Assembly: GCA_963813715.1 (NCBI GenBank)
Contig: CAWFAK010000006.1
Span: forward strand, 32,001-96,000
Origin: an uncultured Planctomycetaceae bacterium
Lineage (GTDB): Bacteria > Planctomycetota > Planctomycetia > Planctomycetales > Planctomycetaceae
Direction of reading: 5' to 3'
Length of the DNA: 64,000 nt
Notes under the pieces: generated by a model
What the model was told of the DNA's origin: nothing
The model's database searches: none
The model's input: the letters and a program-made list of their open reading frames with translations, nothing else
Program-made: the position numbers and the translations under genes
Shown here: one piece after another, positions 5,217 through 20,655 of the stretch
How the letters are laid out: each line of letters begins with the position of its first letter
Position numbering within the stretch: the stretch's first letter is position 1

Positions 5217-5280
5217 ACAAACTTCCGTCGCGCAATAAATCAAATGATCATGCAAACTGATCTTCGGAAACTTCAGCATC

Positions 5281-5289
5281 TGGTATAAT
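5281..5289 (+). promoter_or_regulatory. extended -10 promoter (TGnTATAAT)
   Basis: Perfect TGGTATAAT in an AT-rich spacer upstream of the AAA ATPase. Confidence 0.55.
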
Positions 5290-5454
5290 GGAAGCGTGAC
5301 AACCTGATGTCGCATGACGGAGACGCGTAAAGCGTCGCAAGTTTCTTAACGAAAGCCGTCGCCTTTTCAGCCGCTGGGCTGGGCGATGGCTTTGTTCGTT
5401 TGCAAGCCGGTCTCGCTCAGCAAGGCGGTGCAACAACCAATTTGCGAGGCTGGT

Positions 5455-8576
<3,122 letters not shown>

Positions 8577-10145
8577 TCAATCTGCCTGGACGATCTCACA
8601 CAAGTGAGCGAGGACTTTGGCGATCGTCTTGGTTTCCGCCGCCTTGTCGATCGCGACGCCGGTGACCACGAACGAAAAAACCAGCTGGCGGTCGCTCTTC
8701 GTTGTGAGGTAGCCGGCGAGGGCCTTACTCGTCACCAGGAAGTGATCGTCGAGCAGGTTTTCCCAGAGGAGCGTGCCCGTCTTGGCGTGGACTTTTCCCC
8801 AGACGGGGCTGGTTTTGGGGACGTCGTCCGCCAACGTGCCGTCGACACCGAGAATCGGCAACGCCCGCTCGAAGGCGGAGAAATCGGGACGTGTCGACAA
8901 ATAACGCAGCAACGTGACCGTCATGCGGGGCGTGGTGTAGTCGGATGGGGCACCGCCGGCGCCGCCGCCGAAGGAAAGCGACCCAGCGTCCAGCCCGGCA
9001 CGCCGAAAGAACTCGCGTTCGAAGTGCATGCCGTCCGTCAGCTCCCGCTTGCCGTGCCGCATTGCAATCAACAGGGGCAGCGTGCTCGCGTGCAGATTGT
9101 GGCTCACCTTGAGAATCAGACGGGCGTTCTCGGCGAAGGGAGGCGACTTGAGCGTCGCCACTTTGACCAGCCCGTGCAGGTCTCCCGGTTTGGGCAGCAG
9201 GCTGTCGGGATTAAAGTCGTAAAGCGAAGCCGAGACGCGGACGCCGGCCCGCGCGAGGGCTTCGATGAAGAGCGTTCGGGCCCAGCGAGACGGGTCGGCC
9301 ACTTCACTCACGCAAACGAACTGCGGGCGGTCGGCAGCAATTCGGCCCCGCACGACGAAGCGATCGTCGCCGGCCGGACGGCAGTCGATCGTCGATTGGC
9401 CGCCCGGAGCAATCGTCTCGACCTGCGCGTCGACGCCAAGCGCGGCCGACTTCGGCCGCCAGTCAACCTTGGCGGGCGAGCCTTTGGCGGCCGGCGTGAT
9501 CGTGAAGTCGATCAGGTTGTCGTTGACCATGATGGGCGTCAAACGCGAAGGTCCGCTGCCCGTGCCGCTGGCCGGAGCGAACGCCCGGGCATCGATGATC
9601 ACTTGCCCGCGGACTTCCCGCACGCCGGTTGCCGCGACTTGCCGCGCGAGCGAGTTCAGACCGGCGAGCGGATCGCCCGCCGTCAGCACGGCGATGCCTG
9701 CCGGGTTGGCATAGGTGTGGTCAGCCTTGGTGTATTCGATCTCGTTCGCCTTGGTCGTCCGGCCGCCCAGCGTGAGATCGCCCACCGCCACCAGGATCAG
9801 GTCGCCGTTCAGCACGCCCGCCGCATCGACGGTTCCCCGGCGGAACACGGGCGTCTCGAAGCAGAAATTGCTGCCCAGCGTGTCCAGCGCGGCCGAAACC
9901 GAGTAGAGCTTGGTCGTGGACGCCGGCGGAAAGAGCTTGTCGGCATCGCGCTCGTACAACACTTCGCCCGTGCGACGGTCAGCGACGAGCAGGCCCCAGC
10001 GCGCGTGCTGGAAGCGTGGGCCGTCGATCACTTCGCGAATTTGAGGCGACAGCTTTTCGCCCGCGGTGGCGGAGGCGGCCGCCAGCATCAGGCCCGCGCC
10101 GCAAACAACCAGCTGAGCGACAAGGCAAACGGCGGCACGGGACAT
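8577..10145 (-). CDS. dacB: D-alanyl-D-alanine carboxypeptidase/endopeptidase (PBP4, peptidase S13)
   Basis: Signal peptide; SxxK (ASTTK), SxN (SHN) and KTG motifs. Confidence 0.92.
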   Translation of the reverse strand: MSRAAVCLVAQLVVCGAGLMLAAASATAGEKLSPQIREVIDGPRFQHARWGLLVADRRTGEVLYERDADKLFPPASTTKLYSVSAALDTLGSNFCFETPVFRRGTVDAAGVLNGDLILVAVGDLTLGGRTTKANEIEYTKADHTYANPAGIAVLTAGDPLAGLNSLARQVAATGVREVRGQVIIDARAFAPASGTGSGPSRLTPIMVNDNLIDFTITPAAKGSPAKVDWRPKSAALGVDAQVETIAPGGQSTIDCRPAGDDRFVVRGRIAADRPQFVCVSEVADPSRWARTLFIEALARAGVRVSASLYDFNPDSLLPKPGDLHGLVKVATLKSPPFAENARLILKVSHNLHASTLPLLIAMRHGKRELTDGMHFEREFFRRAGLDAGSLSFGGGAGGAPSDYTTPRMTVTLLRYLSTRPDFSAFERALPILGVDGTLADDVPKTSPVWGKVHAKTGTLLWENLLDDHFLVTSKALAGYLTTKSDRQLVFSFVVTGVAIDKAAETKTIAKVLAHLCEIVQAD

Positions 10146-10209
10146 GGAGCGGCTCCCAGCAAATTCGAGCAGGATGGTCGATCTAGAAGCGAAGGCGATT
10201 GAGGCGCGG

Positions 10210-11667
10210 CTAGGACGGATCGTCGTGGAGGATCTTGCTCACGGTCAGTCCGAGTTCCTGCAGACGTGTCCGCAGCGTATTGCGCGAGAGCCCCAGAATC
10301 TCGGCCGCCCGCGCCTGGTGGCCGCCGACCGACGCCAGCACCTGTTCCAGCAGCACCCGATCGACGGCCGCGTGAACCTGGTCGCTCAGGTTGGCAGTTC
10401 CCTGGGCGAGCAGCTTTTGGACGAGGGCCCGCACGTCCGACAAATCGCCGGCCCCCACCTCGCGCGGCGACTCCTGCGGACGGGTTGCCTCGCGCGAGTG
10501 GCCGCGAACGCTCGTCGGCAGCGCTTGGGGCGTCACGATCTCGCCCGTCGTGTGCACCAGGGCGAACTTGATCGCGCTTTCCAGCTCCCGCACGTTGCCC
10601 GGCCAACTGTGTCGGGCCAGCGCATCGATCGCCTCTGCCGAAATGCCGCGGACGCCGTCGGCCAGATCACGACGGAAGCGCTTCAAAAAGTGTTCGGCCA
10701 ACAGCGGGATATCATCAGGTCGCTCGCGCAAGGGGGGCAGCGTCAGCGTGAACGTGTTGAGCCGGAAGAAGAGGTCGGGGCGGAATTCCTTCCGCTGCAT
10801 CGCTTGTTCGAGGTCCTTGCTGGTGGCGGCAATGATCCGCACGTCGACATGAATTGTCTGGTTGCCGCCCACGCGCTCGAACTTCCCGTCCTGCAGCACG
10901 CGCAAGATCTTAGCCTGCGTGGCCGGGGCCGCGTCGCCAATTTCGTCGAGGAACAGCGTCCCCTGATGGGCCTGTTCGAACTTGCCGATCCGCACGCGGT
11001 CGGCCCCGGTAAACGCCCCCTTCTCGTGCCCGAAGAGTTCGCTTTCCAGAAGTGTTTCGGGGATCGCCGCGCAGTTGATCGCCAGAAACGCCCGGTCGCT
11101 GCGCCGGCTGTGATCGTAGATGGCCCGCGCGATCAGCTCTTTGCCCGTGCCGCTCTCGCCCAGAATCAGCACGGTCACGTCCTGTGCGGCAATCCGGCCG
11201 ACTTCCTTGAAGATGGATTGCATCGCCGCCGATCGACCGATCACGTGGTCGGCGCGGTCGTCCGCGACGGCGTCGGGATCGATCACCGTGCGGACGTGGG
11301 CCAGCCGTCCTGCTTCGAGCGCTTTGTGCACCAGCCCGGTCAATTCGTCCAGGTCCCACGGCTTGAGCAAGTAGTCGAAGGCCCCGCGCTGCATCGCCTC
11401 GATCGCCGTCTCCGCTGTGCCATGAGTCGTCATCACGATCACGGGCAGCTTGGGGTCGGCCGCTCGCAGTTCCTTCAGAACGTCGAGGCCGGAGAGATCG
11501 GGGAGCCGGACGTCGAGCAGCACGGCGTCGGGCTGTTCGCGGCTTGCCGCCTCGATGCCCGCTTTTCCGGTTTGTGCCGTCACGATCCGCAGGCCGTCGC
11601 AGCGCAGCCCCTTCTCCAGGGCGTAGAGCACGTTTCGCTCGTCATCGACGACCAGGAGTGTCGGCAT
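10210..11667 (-). CDS. sigma54-dependent response regulator (NtrC family: REC-AAA+-HTH)
   Basis: LLVVDD, GESGTGKE, GAFTGA, FLDEIG, WPGNVRELE and a Fis-type HTH. Confidence 0.97.
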   Translation of the reverse strand: MPTLLVVDDERNVLYALEKGLRCDGLRIVTAQTGKAGIEAASREQPDAVLLDVRLPDLSGLDVLKELRAADPKLPVIVMTTHGTAETAIEAMQRGAFDYLLKPWDLDELTGLVHKALEAGRLAHVRTVIDPDAVADDRADHVIGRSAAMQSIFKEVGRIAAQDVTVLILGESGTGKELIARAIYDHSRRSDRAFLAINCAAIPETLLESELFGHEKGAFTGADRVRIGKFEQAHQGTLFLDEIGDAAPATQAKILRVLQDGKFERVGGNQTIHVDVRIIAATSKDLEQAMQRKEFRPDLFFRLNTFTLTLPPLRERPDDIPLLAEHFLKRFRRDLADGVRGISAEAIDALARHSWPGNVRELESAIKFALVHTTGEIVTPQALPTSVRGHSREATRPQESPREVGAGDLSDVRALVQKLLAQGTANLSDQVHAAVDRVLLEQVLASVGGHQARAAEILGLSRNTLRTRLQELGLTVSKILHDDPS

Positions 11668-11675
11668 CGGTTGGT

Positions 11676-13290
11676 TTACTCTTGTCCGCGTGGTGCACCC
11701 ATCGACGACTCGGCCGAAATGGTCGTTTGGCCGTTCGTCGATTTATCGGTGGTCGTTCCGTCGCTAACCGGTTTGTCGCCGGGCGCGGACCGACCGAGGG
11801 TCGGCAGCGTGACGGTGAAAATCGCGCCGCCTTGTGGGCCGTTGGCCGCTTCGATACAGCCACGATGATCTTCGACAATGCGGCGGCAGATTGTCAGCCC
11901 CAAGCCGGTCCCCGATTCCTTCGTGCTGACAAACGGCTCGAACAGGCGGTCCCGCACAGCCTGCGAAATGCCCGGACCGCTGTCGGCTACAGTGACCACC
12001 GCGCAGCTCGGCCTCCGTCTCTCAATGCGGATCGTCACCTGGCCCTCGCTGCGAACGGCGTCGAACGCGTTGAGCAGGAGGTTGAGCAGCACCTGGTGCA
12101 ACTGCTCCGGATCGGCGTCGACTTCGATCGGGCGTTCCGGCGGCTCGACGACAACCCGAATCGACTGCTGCTCCGCGCGGCCGGCGAGGAGCTGGCACGT
12201 CCGTTCGACGACCGACGCCAGATCCACCCGCCGCTTGGCGATGGCCGGCGGACGGGCGTAGTCCAGAAACGATTGCAGCGAGCGATTCAATCGCTGGATT
12301 TCCTCGTCGAGCACGGCCAGGTCGCGGGCATTGAGCGATTCGGTCTCCGGATCACGGCGTGCGGCGTCGACGATCGTCTTCATGGCCGTCAGCGGATTGC
12401 GCAGCTCGTGCGCCAGGCCAGCGGCCAACTGCCCCAGCGCGGCCATCTGATCGTTGCGCAACCGATCGCGCTCGGCCGACTGCAGCCGCTCGACGACCTG
12501 CGCGACCCGCTGGGCCAGGCCGGCCGCCGCCGCATCGAGCTGTGCGAAGTTGTCGGTCGAGACGACCTGGACCGGCCCGACGACCTGGTCCAGCGAACCC
12601 AGGGCGCTACGAATCGGGATGCTCAATTCGATCAGCTCGCGACGGAGACTGCGGGCGATGCCGAAGCCCGGCCACCACTCCGCCCAGCGTGCCCCCCATG
12701 CCCAACACGAACAGGGCCCAGTCGGCCCGCCGCGTCACTTCGAGTCCGTTCTTCCGTGCCGCATGCAGCGCCTCGACGCAAAGCTCGCGTTCTTCGCGGG
12801 CGCGGGACAGAAGCTGCGGATCGAGCAGCGTGCCGATCACGCGGCGGGCGACGGCTTCGCGAGCCTCGCGGGGCGTCGGTGCCGTGGGCATTTGATTGAG
12901 CTCGCGTCGCAGGGCGACCGTGTACTGCTCCATCTCGGCGACCAGCGAATGGCCGCGTTCGGACATCACCAGGCCGTCCACCTGCACCAGGTCGTTATCC
13001 CCCTCCTGGCCCAGGCCGCGGGCCACTTCGACCTCGCGGGCCTGCCCGGCCGAAGCATAGTCGGTGAGGTGCCGTCGGCACTCGTCGAAGACCTGCTCGA
13101 CGCGCTCGGCCGCTTCGCTGGCGGACATCGCCTGGTCGATCACGCGGTCTGCCTCGAGCTGCATCCGCCGCAGTGCCAGCGACGCGATGGCGACGGTCGC
13201 CAACAGAAGCACGCTCAGCACCAAGGTGGGAGCGGCGACCCGCCAGACAATTCCGCGACCGGCAAAAGTCATCCTGTGAGTCTCGGACAA
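11676..13290 (-). CDS. membrane sensor histidine kinase (frameshift near 12665)
   Basis: Two TMs and a periplasmic helical domain in one frame; H-box LAHELRNPL, N box, DSGPG and GTGLGL in the next. Confidence 0.92.
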
Positions 13291-13500
13291 ATCAGTGGCC
13301 TGTCAACCTGCGGAAAACTAAATGACCGGCAAATCACAACGACCAAGGTGCACCGTCAAGGTTCGCGCGCGGCGGTTAAAAACTGAGCGCGATTTCCATC
13401 GTAACCGACCGGATCGGGAATTGGGCGCGCCGCTATTTATTCGCATTAACTCGAATCCTCTGGAGGTTTTCCGCCCCAATCGCGAGCGGCCACGTCGGAC

Positions 13501-13517
13501 TTGGCACATGGCCTGCA
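13501..13517 (+). promoter_or_regulatory. putative sigma54 (-24/-12) promoter
   Basis: TTGGCACATGGCCTGCA has GG-N10-GC spacing and lies divergent from an NtrC-family system. Confidence 0.65.
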
Positions 13518-13646
13518 TAGGTAGTGAATCGTTCAGAACTCTTACGAGGCATGTTGGAAAGAACTCGGATCGAAATCAGGGAAGTACGGGCCAGCTATTC
13601 ACGGTGCCACCCATTCACGGGACCACTGCGATCCGGGAGGGCCGCC

Positions 13647-13787
13647 ATGTCGGACGCAAAGCGAAGACGCAGGCATTCTCCCAACCATGTGAAACGCGCT
13701 TGGTATGCCCGGCACCGCTGCATTCGCTTCGCCCGTCGTTTCTTCGCGGGAAGCAACCCCGCCATTTCGCAAAGTGATCGAGGATGA
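13647..13787 (+). CDS. putative 46-aa Arg-rich small protein coupled to the recombinase
   Basis: GGGAGG RBS, then MSDAKRRRRHSPNHVKRAWYARHR...; the stop overlaps the recombinase start (ATGA). Confidence 0.4.
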   Translation: MSDAKRRRRHSPNHVKRAWYARHRCIRFARRFFAGSNPAISQSDRG

Positions 13788-14383
13788 GCACTTCACTCGG
13801 GCCATTGGATAAGACACGGATTCTGAGCCGCTCGGAAATCGCGGCCGTGATCGCCGACCTGAAACGGAAACGGCGATCGGTCAACACGCGGCAGAATCTG
13901 ATCGTGTTTCGCCTGTCTGCCTCCTGCGGCTTGCGGGTCTCGGAGATCGCTGGAATTTGCATTCGCGACGTCCAGACCGAAGGCCCGCGGCCGCACCTTT
14001 GTATCCCCCAAACCGGGGCCAAGCGATGTCGGCCCCGCACCGTGCCCCTCTGGTGGGACGCGGAGACTCTCGCTGACATCGCTGCTTGGAAGCGCGAGCG
14101 GATCGAGGCGGGAGCGCAACCGTCCGATCCGCTCGTTTGCAGCCAGCACAAAGACACCTGGGGCAAGACGCTCTCGGCACGCAACCTCCAACATCGCTGG
14201 AGTGTGGCCATCAAAGTGCTGGGCCGGGACCGCGCCAAACGGCTCAGTATTCAAAAGGGACGCCATTCGTTCTGCTCGCACGCCCTGGCCAGCGGCCGCA
14301 GCATTGCCGAAGTTCGCGAGGCCGCCGGCCACGCCAATCTCGCCACCACCGCCAGCTACTTTCAGTTGAGGTCGGATCACTGA
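13784..14383 (+). CDS. tyrosine recombinase/integrase, catalytic domain only (199 aa)
   Basis: GLRVSEI (catalytic R), K-containing loop (GAKR), QKGRH in place of HxxRH, AGH, and TTASY (catalytic Y). Confidence 0.93.
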   Translation: MSTSLGPLDKTRILSRSEIAAVIADLKRKRRSVNTRQNLIVFRLSASCGLRVSEIAGICIRDVQTEGPRPHLCIPQTGAKRCRPRTVPLWWDAETLADIAAWKRERIEAGAQPSDPLVCSQHKDTWGKTLSARNLQHRWSVAIKVLGRDRAKRLSIQKGRHSFCSHALASGRSIAEVREAAGHANLATTASYFQLRSDH

Positions 14384-14463
14384 AGGTCTGCCGTCAGCAG
14401 GGCGACTCGAGCGGACCATCTCGACGAATTTCTCACCGCTCCATGAGCCGCGTTTGACGGCCG

Positions 14464-14499
14464 GACCCCGGGGTGCCTCTGGCCCCGGGGTCTCTTTTT
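14464..14499 (+). terminator. intrinsic terminator after the recombinase
   Basis: 10-bp stem GACCCCGGGG/CCCCGGGGTC followed by TCTTTTT. Confidence 0.75.
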
Positions 14500-14725
14500 G
14501 CGCGTCCGCCGCCACGCTGCGTCCACCGGCGAGTTTTTCGGTTCTTACGCCTGAGCCGATTCCCGCGGTTCTCTTGGGTCGGTTTAGACGCAGTAAACCG
14601 GTTTTGCTGAGGCGAAGGCCGGCTCACAAGTGGCGTGCACGCGCCAACCGATGAAAACGGCGCGTCGTTCTTTCTCGATAGGCCCGGTCGGTTGTGCTTA
14701 ATCGACCCCAGCCGAGAGTCGTGCC

Positions 14726-16168
14726 ATGCGATTGTCCATCCGTGCCTTCGGAGTCGCCCTGCTGGTGGGAACGCTGGCCGCGTCGGGTCGCTGCGGTGAC
14801 CTGTCACTCGACCTGACGGAAACGCCGCCTCCCGATCCGACGGCTCCGGCCGCCCCGGCGACTCCTCCCGCGGCTCCGGGACTCTCGACGCTGCCGGCCC
14901 CGGTCATCGCCCAACCGTGCGACAGCCCGAGCCTTCCCGCCTGCACGCCATCCCCCTTCGACGGCGACTGCTGCACGCGACCGCTCCTGTTAGGCAGTTT
15001 GTGCGGGGTCCGCGACCAGCTGGCCGCCCACGGAATCACCTTCAACGCCGATACCTATCAGTTCTACCAGGGAGTGGCGACCGGCGGCATTCACGACGTC
15101 GGCGACTATTCCGGCCGCAACGACTACTTCGTCAACATCGACGGCGAAAAGCTGGGCCTCTGGAAAGGCTTCTTCATTACCCTCCACGGCGAAACGCGCT
15201 ACGGCGACACGGTCAACGGCGACACGGGCGCCATCATCCCCGTCAACACGGCCGAGCTCTTCCCCACGGCGAGGGGGTCCGAAACGGCGCTCACCGGCGT
15301 GAAATTCACGCAGGCCCTGTCCGAGAACTTCGTGCTGTTTGGCGGCAAGCTCAACATGCTCGACGAGTTCAAGATGCCGTTCACGGGCGACCGTGCGATC
15401 GACGGCTTCTGGAACCTCGGCATGTCGTTCCCCGTCATCGTGGCCCGCACCGTCCCGTATTCGACTCTCGGTGCCGGAGCGGCCATCCTCAAGGACGGAG
15501 CGCCCATCTTCACCGTCATGGTGCTCGATACCAACAACACGCCGACGACGAGCGGCTTCAACGAGCTCTTCAGCAACGGCGTGACGATCTTTGCAAACCT
15601 CACCTTGCCGACCAAGTTCTTCGGCCTGCCGGGCTCGCAAGGCGTCTCCGGCACGTTCGGCACCGGCAATTACAACAGTTTGTCGCCAACCGCTTACTTC
15701 GATCCCGAGCAAGGACTCGTGATTACGCAGGAATTCGTCCGCGACTCGTGGTGCGTCTTCTACACGGGCACCCAGGCCCTGTGGGTCGATCCCTGCAATC
15801 CCAAGCGTGAGTACGGCGTCTTCACCAACATCGGGACCGCCGACAACGGCCCTAGCCCGATCAGCTTCGCCGCCAACGTGGCCCTGTACGGCAGCAGCCC
15901 GATCACCAATCGTCCGCTGGACACGTTCGGCATCGGCTACACGTTCACGCGATATTCGTCGCCCATCCGCGACTTCGCCCCGGTCCTCTTGCCGATCGGC
16001 AACGATCAGGCCATCGAGTTGTTCTACAACTTCGCCGTCACGCCCTGGTTCAACGTCGCTCCGGACCTGCAGGTCGTCTTCCCCGCCCGCGAAGAAACCC
16101 TGCCGCCTAATCGCGAATCGATCGACACGGCCCTCGTCCTCGGCATCCGCGCAAAGATCAACTTCTAA
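14726..16168 (+). CDS. carbohydrate-selective porin (OprB family)
   Basis: Signal peptide, Pro-rich linker, RDQLAAHGITF, ELFYNFAVTPWFNVAPDLQVV and a C-terminal Phe. Confidence 0.9.
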   Translation: MRLSIRAFGVALLVGTLAASGRCGDLSLDLTETPPPDPTAPAAPATPPAAPGLSTLPAPVIAQPCDSPSLPACTPSPFDGDCCTRPLLLGSLCGVRDQLAAHGITFNADTYQFYQGVATGGIHDVGDYSGRNDYFVNIDGEKLGLWKGFFITLHGETRYGDTVNGDTGAIIPVNTAELFPTARGSETALTGVKFTQALSENFVLFGGKLNMLDEFKMPFTGDRAIDGFWNLGMSFPVIVARTVPYSTLGAGAAILKDGAPIFTVMVLDTNNTPTTSGFNELFSNGVTIFANLTLPTKFFGLPGSQGVSGTFGTGNYNSLSPTAYFDPEQGLVITQEFVRDSWCVFYTGTQALWVDPCNPKREYGVFTNIGTADNGPSPISFAANVALYGSSPITNRPLDTFGIGYTFTRYSSPIRDFAPVLLPIGNDQAIELFYNFAVTPWFNVAPDLQVVFPAREETLPPNRESIDTALVLGIRAKINF

Positions 16169-16169
16169 G

Positions 16170-16198
16170 GCAGGGGCGTGCCCCTGCACCCGGGGCGG
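16170..16198 (+). repeat. REP-like hairpin, same family as 7010-7039
   Basis: GCAGGGGCGTGCCCCTGCACCCGGGGCGG directly after the porin TAA. Confidence 0.8.
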
Positions 16199-16365
16199 TT
16201 CGAACTGCTTGAGCTGAGGCGCTGGCGCCCGCCGGGGAGTTTCTGCGAGGAAGGTTTGAGTCGGAACAGCCGACTGGTGATGCCCGCTTTGTCGGCGAAG
16301 AGTCGTTCGCTGTTCAGGATCCGGTTCTCTCAACGATCGCGTTGCTGATGGTCGGACACGAACCT

Positions 16366-17088
16366 TCACCGTTCCGATCGCGGCGCGGCGTGCATTGAGA
16401 CCAGCCGCGCGATGAGCATCGCGACGAACAGAGTGCCGGTGGTGGCTTCCAGGGCTGCCAAAAGTCGTGCGGGCCGAGACACGGGGACGATGTCTCCATA
16501 ACCGACCGTGCTCAGCGTCACAAAACTGAAGTAAAACGCGTTGAAGCCGGTCATGGTGTTCGGCCCCATCGAGTGATCGCTCGTCGCAAAGGCAGTGGGG
16601 TTGAGGCTCGCGATCAGCACGTAGGCCATGGCCCACCCCAGACCCAGCATCAGATACGTCGACACCGCCGCGCAGAGCACGCCGAACGTGACAATCTTAG
16701 CCCGGAGAATGTAGGCCAGATAAACGACAAGGACATAACTCAGGAGGGCCAGAACCGGGACCAGGTAGATGATGGGCGACAGCTGATCCGCGTAGAGATG
16801 GTGCAACCAGCGGGCGAAAATCGCCATGACGGCGAGAGCCAGCGAGCTCAGCAGGGTCGACCAGCGATTTGAGACGGCCAAGACTGCCGAGACCAGCATG
16901 AAAGTCAGCAGCAGCCCTTCGATCAACGGCCCGTGTTCCAAGTCCTCCACGAACGGCGTGACGACGATCAGCAACAGCAGTGAAATCAGGAATTCGACGG
17001 CCGACCACTGGGAGAGCACGACAAATCGCCGCCGCCGCTTCACTGTGGCATGCGTTGGGCCGGAATCTGGAGCATTGTTATCCATCAC
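16366..17088 (-). CDS. potassium channel family protein (no RCK domain)
   Basis: Multiple TMs and the selectivity filter in FYFSFVTLSTVGYGDI. Confidence 0.9.
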   Translation of the reverse strand: MMDNNAPDSGPTHATVKRRRRFVVLSQWSAVEFLISLLLLIVVTPFVEDLEHGPLIEGLLLTFMLVSAVLAVSNRWSTLLSSLALAVMAIFARWLHHLYADQLSPIIYLVPVLALLSYVLVVYLAYILRAKIVTFGVLCAAVSTYLMLGLGWAMAYVLIASLNPTAFATSDHSMGPNTMTGFNAFYFSFVTLSTVGYGDIVPVSRPARLLAALEATTGTLFVAMLIARLVSMHAAPRSER

Positions 17089-17119
17089 GATCCTTCAACC
17101 TGAGCCCAAGTTAACTCTT

Positions 17120-17160
17120 CTCCCCTCGCCCCTCGCGGGAGAGGGGTCGGGGGTGAGGGG
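17120..17160. repeat. REP-like palindrome (CCCTCNCCC...GGGAGAGGG...GGTGAGGG family)
   Basis: CTCCCCTCGCCCCTCGCGGGAGAGGGGTCGGGGGTGAGGGG. Confidence 0.8.
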
Positions 17161-17176
17161 ACCCTTTTTTAATCCT

Positions 17177-17547
17177 GTCCCAATCCGTAGGTCCCGTCCG
17201 GTTCGTGTCCCGTCCGGCCTGTCCCGTCCCGTTCGCCCCACGTTGGTCTTCAGCCCCAACGGGGCGAGATTCGATAGCCCAGGTCGGAGCGCAGCGCAGG
17301 CCTGGGATCCGGAGCGACCCAACGAGCTTGCTCGCCGAGCCCCAGCGGGGCGAGACAACGCTCCACCGCGGCACCCGGTCCCGTTCGTGTCGCGTCCCGT
17401 CGTAGAAAGTGTCCGGACCGGACCTCGGCCGTTCATAATCCATTGATTGCGTCAACTTAAGCCGGACACTTCGGTTTCGTGCGATCCGGACCGGACCCGC
17501 GGTGGGACCACTTTCGGGCGCCCCCTTATATTAAATGTGAGAGTCCC
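17177..17547. repeat. array of short GTCCC/GGGAC repeats, interrupted by a REP-like element (17252-17356), next to an AT-rich core
   Basis: Multiple GTCCCGTCC units; AGCCCCA(A/G)CGGGGCGAGA twice; TTATATTAAAT at 17526-17536. Confidence 0.7.
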
Positions 17548-17751
17548 GTCACGCCGGGGATGAAATTTCTGACCGGCTGGGACGACCTGAGAGCTGGCTG
17601 AGCACTGATTCGAGCCGCCACCGACCGCGCGCACCTCGACCGCGGGGACAAATCGTCTCATTTCATTCTGCGGCGGTTTCGAGGTTCCACCAAGCCCGCG
17701 TTTCTACGCTCTTGGAAACAACCGCCGAAGTTTTCTCTGGCGCCCGTTCTC

Positions 17752-19175
17752 TCACTTCACCTCTTCAAAATCCGCCGGTTTCCAGCTGCCGTCGAAGGCC
17801 GGCCCCTTCGGGCCGTAGATGCGGAAGTAGACGAACCAGCCTTTGCCCGGAGCGGTTTTGATCCAGCGCGACTCTTTGCCCGCCGGCGCAGTTGGGCCGA
17901 AGTAGAGGTCGACGGAATCGCCCGTCAAATCTTTGAGCTCGAACAATGAACGAAGGGCTGCCTTGTCCTGATCGGTTTGCACTTCGCTGCGCGTGGCCGC
18001 GTCGTAGGCGGTCACTGACCAGAAGAGGCCGGCCGGCACTGGCAAAGGGACCGTGAGCTTGTAGCTCTTGCCGCCGTCGAGGTAGGCGCCGCTGTGGTCG
18101 CGGGCGGCGAGCCAGTAGAGCGAGCCCGCCCCGGCCGAGCGGCGGAACATGGCCGGCGAGGCGACGATGGCCTGGGCGAACCAGCGGTCGCGGGCCTCGA
18201 GGTCGAGTCCGCTCCGCGTGCGAAAGTTGCCATTATCGGCGACGAGTCCCGCCCACTCCCACTTGCGGTCGTCCCACGCCCGGCGGTCGGCGCGAGTGCC
18301 GTCGAAGGCCGACACGAGCAGTTGCTCGCGCCGGACTTGGCGGCGCGCTCCAGGATTTCTTTCATTCGCGCGTCGGGGGCGAAGGGTTTGCCCTTCTCGA
18401 TGCCAAGCGCCATCAACGGGCCGTACATCGCGCGGAATTCGCCGACGACCGGCTCCGCCTCGACGACGTCGTGCAGCTTCTCCCAGAACTGGAGGTTGTC
18501 TTCCCAGCGGAGGCACGTGCCGTCCATCGGCTTCTGCGAGATGTCGGTGTACTTCACCAGCTGAGGATTGGCCGCGGTCGACAGGGGATAGATCTTGATC
18601 GAACGCAGAGCGGCCATCGCCCCGTCGACGTCCCCTTTCACCGGCAGCGAGCGAATGGCGACGAGCACCTTGTACGATCCCGCGCGGCCCACGTGGTAAC
18701 CGCTCGGCACTTCTCCCTTGTAGCCGGGCGGTAGCAGCAGGTGCTTCCCCCCTTTGCCCGCGTCGGGACCGGGCAAGCCCATGTCCATGATCCAGCGCTG
18801 GTGATGATCGTCCGCCAGCGCGATGAACGGCCCCGGCGGCAATTCGACCACGAGCGGCCGATCTTTGAGGTCGAACGTTCCCGAGCCGTACGGCGTGTCG
18901 GAATTGGCCGTGAAGACGACGTGCCGCGGACCGGCCGACAGGATCATCATGTCTTCGTTGACCTTCTGACCCAGTTCCAGACCGCCGTTGAAGATGCCTT
19001 CGCACGAGAGGGTCGGGTACCAGAAGCGGTAGGCCGTGACGGCCCGCTGAAAATCCTCGGCATCGCGGGCCTTTTGCGAGGCCTCGGGCGTGGGAAAGCC
19101 ACCACGCAATGTCGGCTCCTGGCCGGATGCGAATGCGGGCGCAAGAACCAGCGCGAGGAGGAATAGATTTCGCAT
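17752..19175 (-). CDS. DUF1254/DUF1214 domain secreted protein (frameshift near 18330)
   Basis: Signal peptide; TANSDTPY, DMGLPGPDAGKGGKHLLLPPGY, FWSVTAYD, YFRIYGP. Confidence 0.9.
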
Positions 19176-19211
19176 GTTGGTCTTCCGATCAAAAGCGATC
19201 AGGTCGCGGGG

Positions 19212-20655
19212 TTACTGAGCCCTCTCAACATCCGGCAGCTTCCACGTCTTCTGGTAGAGCGCCTTCGTCGGCGCGTACAGGCGGAACATCAGCTCGAACT
19301 TGCGGGCCGGATCGGTCGGCAGCCAATTGCTTTCCTTGCCGGTGGGGGCACTGGGACCGATGTAAATGTCGATTGATCCATCGGCGTTCTTCTGCAGCTC
19401 AGGGATCTGCGACGATCGGCTGCGCGCGAGACGCCCTTAATGAGCGCGTGCGTCTGCCGGTCGTACGCGGTCAGCGACCAGTACTGTTTGACCGGCGCGT
19501 TCGGCGGCACCGAGAGCTGATAGGTTTTGCCGCCGTCGAACGCCTCCCCGTTCTTGTCCTTAATCGTGATCAGATAAAACTGCCCCGCGCCGAGCCGCTT
19601 GAGGCCGATGAAAGCATAACTGTACGCCACGCCACGCTCATCGACCGGATAGTGGTCGGGGTCGGTGTAGCCCTTCTGCGCTGCCTCGACGAGCGCGGGA
19701 TACGTCGGGTACGTCCAGTGCCCGCCCGGCCAGAAGGAGGGGAAGCCGGCGTTGTACTTCATCTCCAGCCAGTCTCTGGCCTCCTTCATCGCGGCGTCTA
19801 AGATCTGCTCCGCCGCGGCGTCGGGACGGAACGGTTTGCCTTTCTCGATGCCCACCGACGTGAGCTGTTCGATCATCGCCTTGTCACGCTCCAGCCACGG
19901 CTCGCTCTGCACGATGCGGTCGAGATGTTTGAAAAAGCTGGCGTCGTAACGGATGGTCGAGTCGAAATCGACGTCCTTCACATCGGTGAACACGGTGGCC
20001 GGCGGATTGGCCGCCTGTGACAGCGGATAGACCTTCATCTGCTTGCCGTAAGCAATCGATTTCTGCACGTCGGCGTCGCCGTGGCTCTTGAGGTTCGATC
20101 GCAACAGCATGTATCCCGCGAACGTGTCGGACGACAGCGGGATGTAGCCGTCGGGCGTTCTCTCTTTGTATCCGGGCGGCAGCACGAGGAACTTGCCGCC
20201 CTTTCCCTTGTCGGCGCCGAGCAGCCCCGCATCCTCCAGCGGCATCTGCCACACGGTGACGACGTTAGCGTTGAACGATCCGTCGGCGTCGCCGGGCGGA
20301 AGATCGAGCACGACGGGGCCGTCCGCCGTGTTGTAGAACGTCATGAAATAGAGGGCATCGGGATTAGGGGTGAGCGTTTGATTCTTCGCGTCGAGCGGCC
20401 GACCCCAATAAATCACCTGGCCAACCTGGCCGGGCGTCTTCGTCAGCATTTCCTGAAGCATCAGGTCATAGTTGACCGCGGGCATGCCCCAGATCACCGC
20501 CTCGACCGCTCGGCGATGGACGGTTCGCTCGGCGAGTTGGGCCGAGGTCAGCGATGGCTGCGTTGCCTTATCCTGAGCAAGGGCGGCGCAAGACAACCCC
20601 GCAAGTAAGAAGCCCGGCAGGATCAGAGCCGCGGCGCAGATCGTGCAGCGCGCAT
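19212..20655 (-). CDS. DUF1254/DUF1214 domain secreted protein, paralog (indels near start and near 19420)
   Basis: RRAVEAVIWGMPAVN, LTPNPDALY, GADKGKGGKFLVLPPGY, YWSLTAYD; the C-terminus ...MFRLYAP...WKLPDVE lies in a shifted frame. Confidence 0.9.

Follow-up and report, generated by a model that had tools for sequence, protein, structure and literature searches.

A putative sigma-54 operon joining a micro-protein gene to a captured minimal tyrosine recombinase beside a two-component system in a planctomycete

A divergent two-component and recombinase locus

We analysed a 64,000-nucleotide (nt) stretch of DNA from an uncultured Planctomycetaceae bacterium (assembly GCA_963813715.1, contig CAWFAK010000006.1, positions 32,001 to 96,000; the window), in which positions 10210-14500 hold the genes of a sensor kinase and a sigma-54 activator and, pointing away from them, a sigma-54-type promoter, a small gene and a tyrosine recombinase gene. 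The source assembly (genome G000 below) comprises 7.49 Mb in 18 contigs at 63% G+C, and its relatives are labelled Planctomycetaceae. A first-pass annotation, made from the sequence letters, had proposed this arrangement as a signal-controlled recombinase system. The locus as a whole is confirmed, with corrections, and the kinase, activator, promoter, small open reading frame (ORF), recombinase and terminator it named were all recovered at or close to where it had placed them.

The leftward genes encode the two-component system. The activator gene (10210-11667, minus strand) specifies an NtrC-family sigma-54 enhancer-binding response regulator with REC, AAA+ and Fis-type helix-turn-helix (HTH) parts, matched in Pfam by Response_reg PF00072, Sigma54_activat PF00158, AAA_lid_14 PF25601 and HTH_8 PF02954, and both GAFTGA and Walker A can be read in its translation. 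Because its score of 506.7 bits against the NtrC equivalog TIGR01818 lies under the 558.6 cut-off, it is assigned at the level of the NtrC family only, and not as the nitrogen regulator itself. The sensor histidine kinase (11676-13290, minus strand) occupies two ORFs in this assembly, a C-terminal one (11676-12626) with HisKA and HATPase_c domains by Pfam, and an N-terminal one (12607-13290) with two hydrophobic stretches, within the N-terminal 210 residues of the protein, around a predicted helical segment of ~150 amino acids (aa) for which Pfam gave no match. The two ORFs are separated by a 1-nt indel, one extra base at ~12666-12671. Contigs from 4 of 4 independent runs have one base fewer at 12666 or 12671, and the gene is in frame at the L015 locus and in a 29.5-kb metagenome contig (L139). 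Translating the two frames side by side reveals the point at which the protein resumes. Since several further activator genes of the assembly also look split (PF00158 has 35 matching stretches in it, with several genes apparently split), the frame break is probably an assembly indel error, and the left-pointing kinase and activator of the earlier annotation stand, with the kinase ORFs as one broken gene. The genome has a single copy of rpoN.

In the 357-nt divergent spacer, a sigma-54-type -24/-12 promoter (TGGCACatggcCTGCA, TGGCAC-N5-CTGCA; 13502-13517, plus strand) points right, with a predicted start at ~13528. Its GG and GC are 10 nt apart and it fits 10 of the 11 specified positions of TGGCAC-N5-TTGCW, in agreement with the first-pass reading of a promoter at 13501-13517. 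The probability of such a match arising by chance in the spacer on the right strand is ~6e-4, by arithmetic from the genome-wide count. Because the loose pattern occurs 19 times in the genome against 27 expected, and so is not enriched, the match alone means little, and its weight comes from comparison. GGCA and CTGC are invariant in six aligned orthologous spacers, in which the intervening bases vary, and the motif is also present in metagenome contigs L138, L139 and L140 (74-99% identity). The GG/GC elements are thus kept at 9/9 loci of the clade to which the recombinase belongs (six species genomes and three metagenome contigs), a comparison that the first-pass annotation had proposed for recombinase homologues.

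Upstream of the promoter, by ~95-170 nt, lies a conserved block (13355-13428) that is a candidate enhancer, or upstream activating sequence (UAS), on the strength of its conservation: 47 of 74 ungapped columns are invariant in the six orthologous spacers, compared with 11 of 30 in the leader. The window carries an imperfect dyad here, GCGGTTA-N5-TGAGCGC (13372-13390), centred ~122 nt upstream of the -24 GG; three species have it in perfect form, as GCGCTCA-N5-TGAGCGC, and the others keep half of it. A 25-mer core of the block is unique in the 7.49-Mb assembly, and the leader RNA folded with a z-score of 0.49.

We consider it likely that the operon is under sigma-54 and activator control. The alternative, that the -24/-12 match does not function as a promoter and the operon is read from another, unrecognised one, we regard as most improbable, given the element-specific conservation at nine loci and in two recombinase-less cassettes (see below), the adjacent activator with its GAFTGA, and a search of 13200-14900 in which no sigma-70-like site was found. 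What speaks for this alternative is the lack of genome-wide enrichment of the motif class, together with contigs from two RNA libraries, which start upstream of the -24/-12 match, span the promoter and show even cover over the whole stretch, a poor fit to a single start at 13528; these libraries may hold DNA, and with all genes covered alike they are uninformative on expression or start site.

The first gene of the operon (13647-13787, plus strand, with an ATG at 13647) encodes a 46-aa arginine-rich micro-protein (MSDAKRRRRHSPNHVKRAWYARHRCIRFARRFF plus a tail), and its TGA overlaps the recombinase ATG. The small ORF of the first-pass annotation is open as an 87-aa GTG frame, but only its last 46 codons are conserved with a coding pattern. 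Over a 29-codon core, the proportion of synonymous differences (pS) is 0.11-0.79 (0.40-0.79 between species) and that of nonsynonymous differences (pN) 0.00-0.16 (0.04-0.16 between species), a synonymous excess which argues that the gene codes for protein. The gene is conserved at all loci of the recombinase clade, and the ATGA stop/start overlap is invariant in 6/6 species.

The micro-protein belongs to an unannotated family of 35-50 aa with no known domain (MPDGxRKRRHSxNxxKRxWYARHRxxRFARRF). There are 3-5 copies per genome in the window's genus (further copies in G000 lie at C17:13578-13682 and C5:223052-223159), and of 61 genomes sampled across the taxonomic family, 12 have matches. A library of 1.84 billion proteins held 361 representative clusters of relatives at an expect value (E) of 0.001, and the best 150 of these are all 35-168 aa long, none being fused to a larger protein. 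Neither Pfam nor PHROG gave a match, comparison with PDB gave just non-significant bL28 matches (E 0.2-0.8), Atlas gave no usable match, and a word-indexed protein search returned the micro-protein alone.

The second gene (13784-14383, plus strand) encodes a 199-aa tyrosine recombinase that consists of the catalytic domain only (PF00589, 62.7 bits against a cut-off of 27.1, residues 17-196). Residues R51, K80, R160, H183 and Y192 are present, and invariant in 27/27 aligned sequences; the histidine position of the HxxR motif is Gln157 in the window. An AlphaFold2 model (predicted local distance difference test score, pLDDT, 88.5; predicted template modelling score, pTM, 0.88) found its best folds by Foldseek in the catalytic domains of Cre, IntI4, XerH and XerA, with query-normalised template modelling scores (TMq) of 0.6-0.7 and an E of 5e-7 to Cre, IntI4 and XerH. 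The gene is single-copy in the genome, and its ratio of nonsynonymous to synonymous substitution rates (dN/dS) is 0.16-0.23 between species at dS 0.3-1.1, which points to purifying selection. The operon ends at an intrinsic terminator (14463-14500, plus strand), in which a 12-bp G+C-rich stem (14463-14493) is followed by a T run; it is kept in genome G002 with paired changes. Downstream of the recombinase, sequence is common to close kin only in the seven loci compared, and a terminator search there found the window and G002 examples and a weak hairpin in G010.

Conservation of the unit and origin of the recombinase

At the nine loci of the recombinase clade (G006 and the L015 locus being identical in sequence, as are G003 and the L026 locus), the arrangement of the window is maintained. 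Kinase, spacer, small ORF and recombinase follow in the window's order in G002, G010, G006, G009 and G003, the activator is also present in the four orthologous loci reaching that far, and the kinase adjoins in 8/8 clade loci that extend far enough. The adjacent two-component system that the first-pass annotation proposed to look for at recombinase homologues is therefore a property of the recombinase's own clade, and within the recombinase-bearing lineage these alignments give good support to promoter, adjacent activator and recombinase as a conserved unit. The flanks of the four-gene module vary, with S13 peptidase and OprB genes in G000 and G002, DUF1501 and, further off, a major facilitator superfamily (MFS) gene in G009 and G003, and others in G006. 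Because the S13 peptidase and OprB orthologues lie far apart elsewhere (0.88 Mb in G003, 39 kb in G005), no empty site can be read for the module. Between its recombinase and MFS genes, G003 has ~4 kb that G009 lacks, and in it sits a gene for a Toll/interleukin-1 receptor (TIR)-domain protein of the CAP12/Pycsar effector type (L118 10185-10856).

A search of 5.8 billion proteins with the recombinase returned 265 matches, the best 120 of which are 161-296 aa long, 54-99% identical to it and named only 'integrase' or 'XerC/D'; no relative of at least 350 aa was found at E 1e-10, in itself weak evidence. The named relatives come from Planctomycetaceae, Thermoguttaceae, Gemmataceae, Pirellulaceae and a Kuenenia bin. 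Within the genus, orthologues at 64-99% identity occur in 6 of the 11 other species genomes, that of G007 (64%) falling outside the sensor-linked clade, and 49 genomes from other genera yielded one more distant relative. A quick maximum-likelihood tree placed all sensor-linked recombinases in a single clade of 28 rows, made up of the sensor-linked sequences and 23 metagenome proteins (Shimodaira-Hasegawa approximate likelihood ratio test, SH-aLRT, 100; stem length 0.39), with G007/L016 and P0024 as its nearest neighbours.

Outside this clade the setting is a different one. In tblastn searches of 17 distinct non-clade loci and 6 metagenome loci, no kinase and no micro-protein were found, and the lone receiver-domain match was a weak one 8 kb off in L016. 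Sigma-54-like matches occur singly in L019 (at -493, 10/11 positions), L029 (~-219 to -237 depending on the anchor, 9/11 positions) and L144-146 (at -326), and the flanks examined there yielded no activator. The neighbours of non-clade recombinases include Prim-Pol, DUF5906, DnaB, a Mutator transposase fragment, a second integrase and a cytosine methylase. The wider family of ~200-aa recombinases thus appears to be Planctomycetota-wide and carried on mobile elements.

Non-clade genes also share an upstream architecture (175 nt), in which an inverted pair, GCGAAATCATRCAK and MTGYAYGATTTCGC, 14 nt apart, is joined by a third, direct copy of the arm motif 10-15 nt ahead of the start codon. It was seen in L016, L017, L018, L019, L020 and L023 and partly in L022, and was looked for and not seen in L021, L009 and L030; sites with 14-nt arms lie at ~6561-6672 in L016, ~7857-7969 in L017 and ~7869-7970 in L018. 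This palindrome looks like the wider family's own binding or recombination site and is a candidate for one. In the captured clade the palindromic site upstream of the gene is gone, and only the proximal arm copy is retained, as an arm-like motif of putative function (ATTTCGCAAAGTGATCGA; 13764-13781, plus strand) that doubles as the codons of the micro-protein tail ISQSDRG. Taken together, tree and context suggest that the recombinase was captured once from this mobile-element-borne family, as a later addition in one sub-lineage.

Relatives with the sensor system and without the recombinase bear on what the sensor controls. Orthologous systems of this kind are present in G004, G005, G008 and G011, with the sensor part of the kinase 53-58% identical and the activator ~79-83%. 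In G008 and G011, a cassette on the far side of the activator gene, and convergent with it, comprises the upstream-block core CTGAGCGCGxxTTCCATC, a promoter (TGGCACGTCCCCTGCT) behind it and a micro-protein gene, followed by a cargo of a 218-aa protein and then a 100-aa protein with two CxxC pairs. Neither cargo protein has a Pfam match, and the 218-aa protein is also without an Atlas match. Homologues of the 218-aa protein adjoin the activator in G005 and G004 too, and the 218-aa/100-aa cargo is conserved beside the activator gene in four recombinase-less species (loci L120 622-1969, minus strand, in G008, and L153, L113, L114 and L116). Among 11 micro-protein copies recognised by script in G004, G005, G007, G008 and G011, only the two beside the orthologous sensor (G008, G011) have the block and TGGCACGTCCCCTGCT. 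A second sigma-54 promoter in G008 (TGGCACCCGATTTGCA), near-perfect and pointing away from the kinase gene, precedes a carboxymuconolactone-decarboxylase (CMD)/AhpD-like gene with a CxxC motif (L115 5509 to 4956, minus strand).

The two cargoes are mutually exclusive over the 12 genomes of the genus, which are kin and not independent, and several of which are 65-87% complete. The clade recombinase occurs in G000, G002, G003, G006, G009 and G010, all without the 218-aa gene; the 218-aa gene occurs in G001, G004, G005, G008 and G011, all without the clade recombinase. In G007, just the 64%-identical non-clade recombinase is present, and a sensor orthologue was looked for there and not found. Because the cassette of G008 and G011 drives other genes without a recombinase, the conserved target of the sensor would be the 46-aa gene. 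The first-pass annotation had tied its idea to the recombinase remaining behind this promoter in orthologous systems; in these relatives the promoter drives other genes, but the link is constant throughout the recombinase-bearing lineage.

Proposed mechanism, rival readings and neighbourhood

We read the locus as a sigma-54 operon of two genes, the second a captured recombinase, that answers to its own envelope-sensing two-component system, and give this reading a probability of about 0.65. The membrane kinase, with an outside helical domain between its two hydrophobic stretches, would phosphorylate the NtrC-family activator, which would bind the conserved block ~120 nt upstream of -24/-12 and open the sigma-54 holoenzyme complex. 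A single mRNA ending at the hairpin at 14463-14493 would then encode micro-protein and recombinase, translationally coupled through the ATGA overlap. The micro-protein cassette would be the sensor's constant target, and the recombinase a gene captured once, which selection has maintained in a single sub-lineage of a Planctomycetaceae genus. Most likely, more of an active site-specific recombinase would be made in response to the signal and would act on some site in the DNA.

Several observations weigh against this reading, beyond the unenriched promoter pattern, the cover of the RNA libraries, the recombinase-less sensor systems and the lost palindrome described above. The HxxR histidine is replaced by Gln in 13 of 23 clade proteins, as against 1 of 97 outside the clade, and 3 of 23 clade proteins retain the C-terminal LFxF tail, compared with 87 of 97 outside. 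The G003 copy of the recombinase gene does not read through, being spread over two frames with one TGA, possibly through an assembly error, as that genome is a single-contig assembly at 87% completeness. At the locus itself, no conserved inverted repeats, invertible segment or rearranged contig was found.

These observations could mean that the recombinase was exapted, that is, that it no longer recombines and is made with the micro-protein as a sequence-specific DNA-binding or regulatory protein. The loss of the adjacent palindromic site, the Gln in 13/23 clade members, the absence of the tail from 20/23 and contigs in which no rearrangement is seen would all fit such a role, but pure binding would not need invariant R51, K80, R160, H183 and Y192, and other tyrosine recombinases tolerate changes at the HxxR histidine; we judge exaptation unlikely. 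Less weight still attaches to the recombinase being a passenger, the left-over integrase of a decayed mobile element behind the micro-protein gene, read through and with no host function, which strikes us as quite unlikely. The same junction is kept in six species at a dN/dS of ~0.2 with dS up to 1.1, the ATGA coupling is invariant and the gene is single-copy in the genome, although non-clade members sit in mobile-element contexts with some copies fragmentary (L012 and L013 in G020), the G003 frame is broken and the flanks of the four-gene module differ by species.

The first-pass annotation went further and proposed that a periplasmic signal could switch on DNA rearrangement. Of this, the regulatory link is well supported, but a target site or rearrangement was not found. 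Over 8500-16500, we compared the window with contigs from four soil or rhizosphere runs, two of DNA and two of RNA. The DNA-run contigs are collinear with the window, and the collinear form is the only one in the four runs, though contigs can drop rare variants; all joints listed lie within the conserved AAA+ region and can be ascribed to other organisms. Paired arm motifs were also sought genome-wide and gave 33 and 49 matches without pattern, the motif being too short to inform.

Two inverted repeats in the window raised the prospect of a local, fim-like switch that flips either a 342-bp segment (14395-14408/14751-14764) or a 3.7-kb one (10024-10046/13759-13781). The first pair matches at 14/14 positions and surrounds the terminator, the porin promoter region and the porin start codon, but it falls to 12/14 in G002, where the left arm has two changes. 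In the second, which matches at 19/23 positions, one arm is the retained arm motif and the other lies 164 nt past the activator gene, and the 18-mer at up to 2 mismatches has only 2 other matches in the assembly. That pair is present only where the S13 peptidase adjoins, its arm is coding (IREVID, a peptide pattern that recurs elsewhere), no copy of it with up to 4 mismatches occurs at the G003 or L015 locus, and G009 has only a direct one with 4 mismatches. Both repeats were judged to be chance, contigs from an independent DNA run are collinear and no joint lies here among those listed (rare forms could be missed), and we take a local switch to be highly improbable.

Overall, signal-induced DNA rearrangement of any kind is in our view doubtful. 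The most elaborate form of the idea, in which an envelope sensor acting via sigma-54 gates a domesticated minimal recombinase, an outside signal triggers programmed rearrangement at a distant site and the micro-protein serves as a DNA-binding or directionality partner in place of the missing core-binding domain, is speculative and would be somewhat surprising.

The first-pass annotation had seen no tRNA attachment (att) site or phage genes nearby; a search of the whole 64-kb window found no tRNA, and the immediate neighbours by Pfam are an S13 peptidase, an OprB porin and a K+ channel, but ~6 kb to the left there is a primase/helicase-like gene. An Rfam scan of 8000-20000 gave nothing beyond one chance-level microRNA match. 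The primase/helicase-like gene (5386-7764) encodes a 792-aa AAA_25 protein and is multi-copy, with 16 matching stretches and about 11 distinct copies in G000 and 3-15 stretches in each of G002, G003, G006, G007, G009 and G010, and no match in searches of G001, G004, G005 and G008. Ahead of it (region 5254-7764) lie a conserved TGGTATAAT-type promoter and a ~100-nt leader containing a terminator-like hairpin. The genomes that have this gene are those that have a recombinase of the family studied here, and a sequence link between the two was not found: arm motifs are not enriched within 4 kb of the 11 copies, and the gene does not resemble the primase genes that adjoin distant members of the family, so that a tie to the recombinase was rejected. 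A 366-aa ORF (7449-8549, minus strand) matches the Old Yellow Enzyme profile only at positions 2-110 of 342 and is probably another frame-shifted or truncated gene. Further right, DUF1214/DUF1254 paralogues stand side by side (18001-18431 and 19460-19879), with 71-74% identical stretches 1.45 kb apart.

Relation to known systems and significance

Likeness to FimB and FimE of E. coli, which the first-pass annotation had drawn, extends to size and architecture (~200 aa, no core-binding domain, colinear end to end) but not to sequence kinship. Identity to FimB is 26% at E 0.001, the hhalign probability to FimE is 80%, a likeness at the level of the superfamily only, and the recombinase is no closer to FimB/FimE than to Xer catalytic domains. 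In two reports, fim inversion receives two-component inputs from OmpR, cited as a repressor, on fimB and from ZraSR and GrpPQ on fimS; ZraR is itself an NtrC-family activator, and ZraR and GrpQ are described as binding the invertible fimS DNA with fimB/fimE mRNA unchanged (PMC13577287, PMC11724981). The present locus differs in that the recombinase gene itself lies behind a sigma-54 promoter, whereas those E. coli inputs act on fimS, and in that fimS is invertible, whereas an invertible element was searched for at this locus and not found.

XerC-like, XerD, XerH and XerA catalytic domains are the best sequence matches among solved structures (E 9e-12 to 1.4e-7), but scores fall far below the equivalog cut-offs (TIGR02224, 62.6 bits against 335; TIGR02225, 44.8 against 330). 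'Simple' tyrosine recombinases are defined as having core-binding and catalytic domains (PMC8138268). The protein described here differs from such simple Xer-type enzymes in having the catalytic domain only.

The integron integrase IntI is expressed under SOS control and acts at an attI site. There, as proposed here, transcription of a tyrosine recombinase gene responds to a stress or signal pathway; attI resembles the non-clade family sites in that an inverted pair and one further direct copy of a binding-site-like motif lie directly upstream of the gene, and IntI4 is among the best fold matches of our model. Unlike IntI, the recombinase here scores 30 bits against a TIGR02249 cut-off of 265, has neither core-binding domain nor cassette array, and would be governed by an activator and sigma-54 rather than a repressor. 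Developmentally timed excisions, such as those by SpoIVCA of the skin element in Bacillus and by XisA, XisC and XisF in Anabaena, of which SpoIVCA and XisF are serine recombinases, likewise tie recombinase expression to a regulatory programme that sets when the DNA is rearranged, but they involve known interrupting elements and another sigma factor and activator class.

Two-component input to fim inversion is thus already known, as is signal-controlled expression of recombinases. What is new here is an activator-dependent type of sigma-54 promoter directly before a captured minimal recombinase, coupled to a micro-protein and beside a sensor. In a literature search that left subscription journals and supplements outside its range, we found no report that brings sigma-54, a tyrosine recombinase and an enhancer-binding protein together, and a term search of a 2025 sigma-54 regulon survey returned no occurrence of 'recombinase' or 'integrase'.

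Beyond the recombinase itself, this analysis has as by-products an unannotated arginine-rich micro-protein family and a candidate recombination site for the wider recombinase family. A few model systems have recombinases that rewrite DNA on cue, and because sigma-54 promoters are silent without their activator, the arrangement would be a clean natural design for tight, signal-gated recombination. If our reading is true, the locus would allow one to trace how a host regulatory circuit captured a mobile-element enzyme, and, should rearrangement follow, would be one in which an outside signal triggers programmed DNA rearrangement in a free-living soil planctomycete.

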